Shown piece after piece: positions 57,101-60,100 of a DNA stretch of 64,000 nucleotides. This DNA comes from Escherichia coli O157:H7 (GTDB taxonomy: Bacteria > Pseudomonadota > Gammaproteobacteria > Enterobacterales > Enterobacteriaceae). The DNA lies in the NCBI RefSeq assembly GCF_013167455.1, contig NZ_CP038328.1, one strand, 5' to 3'. A program made the position numbers. Positions within the stretch are counted from its first letter, which is position 1; each line of letters starts with the position of its first letter.

Positions 57101-60100
57101 CTGTTTTTCCTGTGCGTCCAGGCTTTTATTAATCAGGTTGCCCAGCGGCGTTGCGGAGAACGCCGCATCAGCCATTTCCTGGCGGCGCTCGTTCTCTACC
57201 CGGTAGGCATCCAGCCAGGAGGAAAGCGCGGATTCAGGAGCGGGGATCCCCGTTCCTTCACGCCCCACTGCGTGGCGCGGTTGTTGCCAGTCCCTGATGT
57301 ACTCTGCCGTCATAGTGATTTACTTCGTCATGCCATTCAGGGTGTCGCGGCAGGCTGTAGCCAGCCGCTGAATTTCCAGCACGGTGTCTTCTGTGTCGGC
57401 ATGGCGATGTGTGATGCGGATGCTGTCGGCAATCACATCGACGATTGCAGAGGATGGGCGCTGGTAAATGCCAATAACGGACGGGGTGCCACCTTCAATG
57501 CGGTAAAGCCTGTAATTTCCCTCGTGGCTGTCAATCATGTAGCGACCATCAATAACAATCTTTCCGTCAGCGAGCTGCGGTACAGGCAGGGATTTCAGGT
57601 ACATGTCATAACGATCACGCACGCGAGCGGCAAGATCACGTTCTGTGTTGAGCAGGTATTCAAGAAAGTCGTTGGCGAGAATCATTGCGGCAATCCTCTT
57701 GTTACAGATGTGCGAAGGCCTCCCGCCGCAAGGTGCAGGAAAGGCCCGGAACAGGAATTAATGGAGTTTGTTTTGCTGCTGGATGAGCTGTTGAAACTCG
57801 TGCAGATCATCCGCCAGATAGCTGAAAACAGAGGCGGAATAAATGTTTGATAGTGCGTGGCTGCGCTCATGCAGCATATTGATGTGCATGATTTGCGCGA
57901 CGCGTGATGCGCGGGAAAGTCTGCGGTTGATTTCAGTCTGGATGTGACGACGCTCCGCGATAGCGCGGTGCTGTTTGCGGTCTGCCATGGTGTGGCCTCT
58001 TTGCTCGGTGATAGAAATAACTCACCATCCAGAGTTGAGAATCTCGGGGTGGCGAGACGTACAGGGTTCTCAACACCGGAGAGCAAAGAATCCGGCCCGA
58101 CCGAAGTCGGCCCCGTACGCCCCGCCATAATTCTGACGCGAAAAAGACGTGGCAATACAGTACGCACAAAAAAACCGCTAGCGCGGTTATGCGCTTTGCT
58201 CTGTATCGGGTTGAGAATCCCGGCACCCGTTTTATGAGGTGCAGCGGAAATGTAACCTGACCGATTGCGGCATGGCAAGCGGTTTTTTTGTGTGTGCATG
58301 TTCTGGTTTCTTACTGGTTCAGAAAAAAATCAAAAACGTTATCGATGCGTTGCAGCAGCTCTTGCTGCATTGCTTCCGGCGTTTCCGGTTCGCCAGGTGC
58401 CCCCAGCGTTGCGCAGAAATCAGCGATTTCATGATGGAGCGTGAGGCGAATGGCAGGAGCCGTGGTTCTGGCGTGCTCCAGCTGATCCAGCAGTGCCAGC
58501 ACAGCAGACGGCGAGAGCATTGCGCGAAATGCCAGTAATTTTTGAGGCGTTGCCATTCGTTGCAGGGCAAATGCCAGTTCGCGTAGCTTCTGGTGGTTGA
58601 TGGTGCTCATGCTCTGGCTTCCTTCAGTAGCTGGTTAAACATGTGAGTAAGTGGATTGCTACACCCGAACGGCATCGGGTTTACGTGGTAAGAAGCCTGG
58701 CCTCCTGTTTTGCGAGCGCGACCACCTGTGCTGCGGTTTGTTCTGATGACTAAGCCGCCGCGCCAAAGTCGGCGTAACTCAGCATTAATGGCTGTGGTTG
58801 GGGTATTCAGTGCTGCGGCGATCTCTCCGCCGCTACACCCCGGATGAGTAGCGATGTAGTCCAGAATGGTCATCTGCGTGGCTCCTGTACCTGTCGGATA
58901 AGATTTACTCGCGCCACGTTGGTGGCGCAGAAGTAAGTGCCGTCAGTGAGGTAGATGTGGTGTGCATCCTTTTCCGAACGATGTTTGTCGATAGTGGTAA
59001 TCAGGCGTTCGTCGACCTCGTATTCGCGCCCTCTGGAGGTAAAGCGAACGACGGGAAAATGCTTAATTGCCATTGCGCCCCCTTTGTCCAGTAACCCTAT
59101 GCGTTAAATACGGCACGTTGCGCGTCATCAATGAATACAGCTTGAGAGCGTTCTATCAGGCGGAGATTTGTCAGAAGCTCTGACTCTTTTGTGTGGTAAG
59201 GCGTTATCAGGTATTTGCCGTGCAGTTCGGCAATAATGGTGTATTGCAGCATCATTGCTGAACCAAGAATATAAATGCAGCGTCCAATGCTGGACGGATT
59301 CATGGCTGCAACTGTTGACTGTGTTTTAAGAGTGTCGATTTCTTTGCTCTGTTCCTCAATAACTTTGGCTGCTTCAGGGGTGGCTATTGCGATGGTCAGT
59401 GCGTAAAGCGCTGCCATATGTTGATTATCTTTCTGGGCTGCCCTGGACAGCTTGTCTTGCTCTGCTGACACTATTTTTAATGTATTGATAATATTTTTTT
59501 CTTTTGCGTTCATTTTATATCTCCGTTATTTACGTGTGCGAATACCTCCGCGAATGCGGATAGTTTTCAGGTTTTCGGGTTTAATCTGGTGTTCTGTTTA
59601 AGCTGTTATTTGTCAGTGAAAAAGCGTTCAATCTTTTTTACTGAATGAATAATTCGCATAATCCCAATGGCGCAGGCCACCGAAATAATCAGAACAAGCC
59701 ATGAGATAAATATACTCATGCGATATTCCCCAGCTTATATGGTTCAATGTGTTCCCCGCATTCTGCGGCACAGATCAGCTCGGAAAGTTCGTTAAGTGCA
59801 TCCAGATCATCAGCGTAAAAAGCAACGTCATACAAACTCCGGATTGCCCTGGTCAATGAGTCACGGGCTGCACGTTCAGCATGAGCGCCTGATGCACTTA
59901 AGCGAAAATAAAATCGTTCAGGTGCTTTGTTAATGAGAGTTTTATATTCTTTGCCCATCGCAACGCCCTTTAATCTGCTTTCTGAATTTCAGCTTCTGAA
60001 TCCATACAAATAATTTCGATATAGGGTTCATCGCCATTAACCTGACGAGCCTTTTCAGCTTCGCTAATGATTTCTCGTACGGTCTGGTACGGAAGCTCCA

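Follow-up and report, generated by a model that had tools for sequence, protein, structure and literature searches.

A conserved membrane-peptide gene and an accessory gene in a variable slot of the early operon of a P88-like prophage of Escherichia coli O157:H7

Introduction

In phages P2 and 186, terminators are placed at corresponding points of the early operon, after gene B in P2 and, as tR1, after the genes fil and dhr in 186; in 186 these small non-essential genes close the promoter-proximal part of the operon, and an intergenic element stands before the replication genes. A likewise arranged locus is found in the DNA analysed here, a stretch of 64,000 nucleotides (nt) from contig NZ_CP038328.1 (assembly GCF_013167455.1) of Escherichia coli O157:H7, hereafter the window, in the last 10 kb of which lies a P2-family prophage, represented by its regulatory and early region. 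Within its early operon, an open reading frame (ORF) for a hydrophobic peptide of 37 amino acids (aa), a spacer of 92 nt and a gene for a 138-aa protein follow one another on the minus strand. These P88-type genes differ from fil and dhr in having no sequence similarity to them, and the hairpin of the P88-type spacer differs from tR1 in having no U-tract on the sense strand.

Two other kinds of element have to be considered. Morons, in the sense given to the word by Hendrix and Juhala for HK97 and HK022, are reportedly extra genes of temperate phages. The 138-aa gene resembles them in its presence or absence among close relatives, in its precise insertion between backbone genes and in its dispensability; it differs from them in that no promoter or terminator of its own was found by consensus scan, in its position within a repressed early operon, co-oriented with genes whose guanine-plus-cytosine (GC) content it shares on the upstream side, and in the confinement of its family to a single slot of one phage lineage. 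Type I toxins and similar small membrane proteins (Hok, TisB, Ldr, Ibs) are like the peptide in that its 37 residues form one hydrophobic helix with a charged tail. However, such toxins have their own promoter and a long leader, whereas the peptide is translationally coupled within an operon; it has no match in Pfam, Rfam or NCBIfam, no Rfam antisense RNA overlaps it, and the sole antisense promoter-like site is at chance level.

Many E. coli O157:H7 chromosomes carry the segment 58800-59800 with 100% identity. The synteny of the prophage (int, repressor, a Cox-like gene, gpA) is P2-like, its nearest phages are the P88-like Peduoviridae of the genus Xuanwuvirus, and in strain PV15-279 it adjoins yecA and tyrP. 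Being a P2-like prophage of O157, it corresponds by kind to Sp13 of strain Sakai, and we refer to it as Sp13. Sakai Sp13 is defective and without most morphogenesis genes, yet it is excised and replicated, and mitomycin C induces its early genes (PMC2669165). The reading that we prefer, at a probability of about 0.55, is that the peptide and the 138-aa protein are two unrelated features of this P88-like early operon, the former the product of a backbone gene and the latter of an accessory gene carried in a variable slot.

Results

The 138-aa gene occupies a variable slot

The elements that bear on this reading are given below, with positions in the window.

59716-59958, minus strand: DUF4754 gene, 80 aa, with a match to phrog_2549 and named "DUF4754 family protein" in RefSeq; directly upstream of the 37-aa ORF
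59606-59719, minus strand: 37-aa ORF (RefSeq WP_000021655.1) for a single-pass membrane peptide; backbone of P88-like early operons
59514-59605, minus strand: 92-nt spacer, a backbone element
59547-59560, minus strand: 5-bp hairpin UCCGC-NNNN-GCGGA inside the spacer
59097-59513, minus strand: 138-aa gene (phrog_9338), an accessory early gene and the cargo of the variable slot
59465-59492, plus strand: antisense promoter-like site CTGACA-16-GATAAT (10/12 matches) inside the 5' end of the 138-aa gene, pointing at the hairpin
59310-59507, minus strand: codons 3-68 of the 138-aa gene, for which an antiparallel hairpin of helices is predicted; this half has diverged more
59133-59279, minus strand: codons 79-127 of the 138-aa gene, for which a small SH3-like beta-barrel of five strands is predicted; this half is the better conserved
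59074-59096, minus strand: 23-nt junction, which arrives with the cargo and gives the 67-aa gene a new ribosome-binding site, AAGGGGG
58870-59073, minus strand: 67-aa gene (phrog_3459), which flanks the slot on the right and is conserved

Both ORFs, the one of 37 and the one of 138 codons, were present where the first-pass annotation of this DNA had placed them, and the latter has a GGAG motif 7 nt ahead of its ATG. We aligned the O157 sequence with those of P88, E. coli XJ34, MS8345 and vB_EcoM-569R5, and extended the alignment with further sequences. Compared with P88 and XJ34, the 138-aa gene has been inserted at a precise point, bounded by the last bases of the conserved spacer on one side and the start codon of the 67-aa gene on the other. 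No gene occupies the slot in P88, XJ34, 520873, Chuche and PhiR44_2; there, the ribosome-binding site and start codon of the 67-aa gene come immediately after the spacer, in the form ...CCAAGGAGGCG(T/C)AATG. Other occupants are an unrelated 105-aa gene (phrog_26764) in MS8345, a 136-aa allele of about 50% identity in 569R5, KS-NP019 and RM13745, and a frameshifted copy in CFSAN018748. The gene called moron-like in the earlier annotation is borne out as an insertion that varies by presence and absence, P88, XJ34 and others passing from the spacer straight to the next gene.

The backbone made up of the DUF4754 gene, the small ORF and the spacer was found in 1,384 of 5,426 complete E. coli genomes, about a quarter of them, and a gene of the 138-aa family in 830, or some 60% of the backbone carriers. 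Among P88-like phage records, four have the 138-aa gene and six distinct phages, P88 and five others, do not. Because these six phages and about 40% of the backbone genomes are without a family gene, the 138-aa gene is dispensable. All family members on contigs that reach far enough upstream, including the most distant ones (122-124 aa), stand behind the DUF4754 gene, the small ORF and the spacer. The search for conservation across P2-like prophages that had been proposed as a check has therefore set the two genes apart, the peptide as backbone and the 138-aa gene as accessory. A conserved replication accessory protein such as gpB was considered as an identity for the 138-aa protein and rejected on account of its absence from P88 and the five other P88-like phage genomes. 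Comparison with the early proteins of P2 and 186 (19 sequences) gave no similarity to the 138-aa protein, all E-values being above 0.1.

The O157 and 569R5-type alleles differ by a synonymous divergence (dS) of about 0.9 with a ratio of nonsynonymous to synonymous divergence (dN/dS) of about 0.4; by halves, dN/dS is 0.4-0.6 in the N-terminal part and 0.2-0.45 in the C-terminal part. The 138-aa gene is under purifying selection. The 67-aa protein (WP_000985157.1) is identical beside empty, 138-aa and 136-aa slots, and since dS between the alleles is nevertheless about 0.9, we infer that old alleles have been exchanged by recombination via the conserved flanks, rather than that one lineage has evolved fast in place.

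In distant relatives (L012 970-1302; L017 5667-6005; L019 5425-5766; L021 429-764), one or two extra genes of 110-113 aa, for example phrog_16975, were observed; they stand after the 138-aa family gene and ahead of a gene of 67-71 aa. The entire stretch from the spacer to the MarR-type gene that follows the 67-aa gene is a variable region rather than a slot for one gene.

The 37-aa ORF is a conserved membrane-peptide gene

The 37-aa peptide (MSIFISWLVLIISVACAIGIMRIIHSVKKIERFFTDK) is encoded behind a GGGGA Shine-Dalgarno-like motif, and the overlap of its start with the preceding stop, reported earlier, was confirmed as an ATGA formed by its ATG and the TGA of the DUF4754 gene. So was its strong hydrophobicity, with a grand average of hydropathicity (GRAVY) of +1.16 and 19-residue windows of up to +2.7 across residues 1-24. 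A transmembrane helix spans residues 2-24 and is followed by the basic tail RIIHSVKKIERFFTDK; by the positive-inside rule, the N-terminus would be outside and the basic C-terminal tail in the cytoplasm.

The gene was found in all 14 P88-like phage records. Its family comprises 108 protein clusters, almost all from Escherichia; 1,000 contigs or more carry the exact sequence, for which UniRef has the name "Prophage membrane protein". In a comparison of 11 distinct DNA sequences, 6, 3 and 12 sites vary at the first, second and third codon positions, and the ratio of nonsynonymous to synonymous polymorphism (pN/pS) is 0.23, compared with 0.37 for the DUF4754 gene. The 37-aa ORF is under purifying selection and is a real, conserved backbone gene. 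Residues of the hydrophobic segment are exchanged for similar ones (I/M, L/I, A/V, M/V), and the diverged relative L012 has, at the same position, a 46-aa ORF of only about 24% identity, whose product likewise combines a single hydrophobic helix with a basic tail.

The 3' end of the ORF (59620-59650) holds an A6 run and a T5-6 run, and frameshift variants there are common in natural genomes. The frameshifted tails yield forms of 45, 34 and 50 aa, one 34-aa form being present on 388 contigs, and in phages Chuche and 503458 only 30 or 25 codons of the ORF are left. Constraint falls on the transmembrane segment of the peptide; the frameshifts could be either decay at a slippage-prone site or tolerated variation of the tail. 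No match to the peptide was obtained in PHROGs, NCBIfam, PADLOC or Pfam, a result that supports neither a toxin nor an exclusion factor, the two roles first suggested for it, and its gene had no match in Rfam (E-value mode).

The spacer belongs to the backbone and contains a hairpin

The spacer is A-rich on the sense strand and terminates in a hairpin and then GGAGGTATTCGCACA; across the aligned phages its end reads ...AAAAC-N-AUCCGCAUUCGCGGAGGUAUUCGCACA. It is conserved in all aligned genomes, whether the slot is filled or empty. About 100 bp of non-coding DNA ahead of the 138-aa gene had been put forward as a sign of a moron. The gap is real, with a length of 92 bp, but it belongs to the backbone and is kept in phages without the gene, so that the argument from the gap fails.

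The hairpin is 100% paired in 10 distinct sequences. Its changes amount to one compensatory C-G to U-A exchange, one G-U pairing that holds on the operon sense strand only, and three variable loop positions; the observed score was reached by 13 of 500 shuffles. Folding of the spacer as a whole was not distinguishable from that of shuffled sequences (minimum free energy z = -0.6), and no Rfam match was found in E-value mode. Promoters and terminators were searched for by simple consensus scans, which gave none on the sense strand of the spacer and none on the minus strand in or around the 138-aa gene (59097-59605). We considered an intrinsic terminator like 186 tR1 and rejected it, because GGUAUUCGC, and no U-tract, comes after the hairpin on the sense strand. 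On the plus, antisense strand it has a weak 5-bp stem, a T-rich tail and a weak terminator-like score. Conceivable roles of the hairpin are in mRNA processing or stability, in protein binding or in the termination of an antisense transcript.

Promoter-like sites such as the antisense one inside the 138-aa gene number 6 in the region, compared with 5.4 expected from shuffles, i.e., they are at chance level. In the 569R5-type allele, TTGAAA-16-GATGAT was noticed by eye at the same place. It is speculative that an antisense RNA of about 70 nt might run from the plus-strand site to the hairpin and cover the ribosome-binding site of the 138-aa gene.

Family and predicted fold of the 138-aa protein

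The sole PHROG match of the 138-aa protein is a strong one to phrog_9338, labelled "unknown function". There were no matches in Pfam, NCBIfam or PADLOC, the Pfam scan giving only DUF5517 at E = 0.47, and family-profile searches of the PDB sequences returned nothing significant; its gene, too, had no Rfam match in E-value mode. The family has 84 clusters in a set of 5.8 billion proteins, and an exhaustive hidden Markov model search of 1.84 billion representatives gave 24 relatives and no annotated distant family. Members with a named source are all from Escherichia; one tblastn match lies on a Salmonella plasmid.

AlphaFold 2 (AF2) predicts two domains, a helical hairpin, whose two helices (residues 3-28 and 32-68) have a predicted local distance difference test score (pLDDT) of about 86-94, and an SH3-like barrel. 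The linker between them varies, and in P0038, P0059 and P0061 (E. albertii and relatives) it is lengthened by 2-4 tandem 7-residue units, DTGLNLS or DTRLNLP. With the full-length model, Foldseek found no match in the PDB at E <= 0.001, ROP-like hairpins being among the non-significant ones; BFVD gave only uncharacterised small barrels, none at E <= 0.001. The predicted C-terminal domain shares its five-stranded small-barrel fold with the KOW domains of Spt5 and NusG, Tudor and chromo domains, NdhS/Ssl0352 and YorP, but the 138-aa protein has no sequence-level match to these families, and the likeness is one of a generic fold that implies no function. As modelled, the architecture would be that of an oligomerising binding protein, neither an enzyme nor a membrane protein, in which the helical hairpin probably serves oligomerisation and the barrel target binding.

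The early operon and its neighbours

The remaining genes of the early operon are the following, in the order of transcription.

60851-61057, minus strand: Arc-like gene
60631-60834, minus strand: Cox-like gene
60259-60609, minus strand: DUF4761 gene
59970-60248, minus strand: 92-aa gene
58607-58873, minus strand: MarR-type winged-helix gene
58311-58610, minus strand: 99-aa gene, after which 322 nt are without a gene
57758-57988, minus strand: "derepression protein" gene
57320-57685, minus strand: 121-aa gene
54491-57313, minus strand: replication endonuclease gpA, at the end of the operon

Most early genes had been described as overlapping, which is not the case: three of the 12 junctions overlap, and the remaining spacers measure 6-23 nt, apart from those of 72, 92 and 322 nt. 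The GC content of the 138-aa gene is 43.9%, against 35-51% (mostly 42-47%) in the six operon genes upstream and 52-57% in the five downstream. That it is AT-richer, as had been noted, is correct in relation to the downstream genes only and not in relation to its upstream neighbours; since it is like the latter and below the former, it stands at a compositional step and is not an AT-rich island. The step itself was observed at about 59074-59100, with 35-51% GC from the integrase to the 138-aa gene and 52-57% from the 67-aa gene to gpA, and the variable slot coincides exactly with this module boundary.

Two RNAs with scores above the Rfam gathering score were observed on the minus strand, an isrK Hfq-binding RNA at 58168-58242 (63 bits) and a C4 antisense RNA at 58045-58132 (78.5 bits). 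They sit in the geneless stretch of 322 nt, just upstream of the "derepression protein" gene, with which they look like an antisense-RNA/antirepressor module of the P1/P7 immI kind within a P2-like operon. As a possible reason for the unusual induction of Sp13 by mitomycin C, Asadulghani et al. named its P4 epsilon-like gene (PMC2669165). A 205-aa ORF at 57682-58299 on the minus strand, given as a coding sequence in the records of 569R5 and PhiR44_2 and unannotated in the RefSeq O157 sequence, overlaps the derepression gene as well as the two RNAs and was probably called as a gene in error.

Between repressor and integrase (61553-62580, plus strand) lie a 216-aa gene (phrog_5825, 41% GC) and a DUF2511 gene of 115 aa (35% GC, 27% at third codon positions). 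Both lie on the lysogenic strand, no other genes of the region are as AT-rich, and a role as lysogenic-conversion morons is more plausible for them than for the 138-aa gene. Directly past gpA, at 53455-54414 on the minus strand, there is a ParM-like plasmid segregation gene; its position roughly corresponds to that of the non-essential conversion gene tin in phage P2, which is located beyond gene A and orf91.

Discussion

In a classical moron or lysogenic-conversion cassette, the 138-aa gene would be expressed from the prophage and would protect the lysogen, through superinfection exclusion, abortive infection or the like. Its variable presence at a precise site, the 92-nt non-coding stretch upstream and a GC content lower than that of the downstream genes all point that way. 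However, the upstream stretch is backbone and present in phages with an empty slot, the composition equals that of the upstream neighbours, the consensus scans gave no promoter or terminator on the strand of the gene, and the gene lies within the repressor-controlled early operon. There was, moreover, no PADLOC match, and the family was not found outside its single slot. We consider a moron of this type unlikely, and the term "moron-like" used in the first-pass annotation does not hold in its strict sense, given the lack of own signals in those scans, the co-orientation within the early operon and the GC content of the upstream neighbours. The pairing of the two genes has even less in its favour. 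A module of a 37-aa membrane toxin with a 138-aa antidote or partner would fit their adjacency and the resemblance of the peptide to type I toxins in size and hydrophobicity, but the peptide gene stands alone in about 40% of the backbone-carrying genomes and in six phage genomes, the slot can carry an unrelated gene, and the peptide is coupled to the DUF4754 gene upstream while the 92-nt spacer separates it from its supposed partner. The pairing is thus contradicted, and such a module, largely refuted by the distribution, is very improbable. Least credible of all is that one or both are chance ORFs in AT-rich DNA, i.e., annotation noise. It is true that the ORFs are short and without family matches and that the smaller one is unannotated in some of the phage records examined; against this stand the codon-position bias, the pN/pS of 0.23 and dN/dS of about 0.4, the ribosome-binding sites, the divergent transmembrane ORF that L012 keeps in place and the confident AF2 folds, by which this explanation is refuted for practical purposes.

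A further possibility concerns the peptide by itself, namely that it is an early lytic host-killing or host-arrest factor, which would depolarise the membrane or inhibit a membrane protein of division or transport, in a role analogous to that of 186 Fil and Dhr or lambda Kil. The peptide is conserved under purifying selection, it has the transmembrane helix and basic tail typical of small membrane effectors, and its gene is the last ahead of the spacer, a place that matches that of fil and dhr before tR1. On the other hand, it shows no sequence similarity to Fil, Dhr or any early protein of P2 or 186, tail frameshifts are common, and no family match was found. We regard such a role as possible, though doubtful. 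A likeness of 10 residues to the C-terminus of Fil (IMRIIHSVKK and IIRIVHFVIK) was rejected; 223 of 5,000 shuffles scored at least as high, the match is lost once 19 comparisons are corrected for, and other proteins scored equally high or higher.

We therefore return to the reading of two unrelated features, a backbone peptide gene and an accessory gene in a slot. In this arrangement, the early promoter, once derepressed, would transcribe the whole operon. The peptide would be made by coupling to DUF4754, would insert into the inner membrane and would act there during lytic growth and not in the lysogen. The 138-aa gene would be read from the early promoter only after derepression and translated from its own ribosome-binding site into a soluble two-domain protein, which may bind a host or competitor target through its barrel. 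This timing of expression is suggested by the structure of the operon and by the microarray data on Sp13. The spacer and its hairpin mark the border of two modules, an AT-richer one next to the promoter and a GC-richer one for replication. By analogy with further early phage genes that are non-essential and highly variable, the 138-aa protein might serve early-lytic target binding in host takeover or counter-defence, an assignment that we offer tentatively.

Several points weigh against this account. As the scans for promoters relied on consensus sequences only, a weak internal promoter may drive expression of the 138-aa gene in the lysogen. The evidence for the hairpin is modest, since it comes down to essentially one compensatory event. 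The frameshifts and truncations of the tail would mean that part of the peptide is dispensable, or that the gene is decaying in some prophages. Lastly, neither protein received a functional label from Pfam, NCBIfam, PADLOC, the PDB sequences or PHROGs.

A more daring version of the same account, in which we place still less confidence, would make the 138-aa family a fast-diversifying early effector, whose SH3-like domain binds a defence or housekeeping target of the host while the helical hairpin evolves to escape or match it; independently of this, the 37-aa peptide would be an early lytic membrane effector, and the hairpin of the spacer would act as a signal for RNA processing or stability, dividing the operon into two halves under different regulation. 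If the 138-aa family were such an effector, the slot would be a counter-defence locus within the early operon of the P2 family, separate from the known defence hotspots of P2.

Searches of the literature by protein accession, peptide sequence and topic found no study of either gene. Both are already annotated as hypothetical proteins, and the finding is real but ordinary, with no new kind of system. It corrects the reading of the non-coding gap as the mark of a moron, and it adds a well-supported small membrane protein to the translated small ORFs of enterohaemorrhagic E. coli. The backbone is present in about a quarter of the complete E. coli genomes, and yet those of its early genes that were examined are without known function. 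The states of the slot, which may be empty, hold either of two alleles of about 50% identity or carry an unrelated gene, constitute natural isogenic comparisons for accessory early genes.

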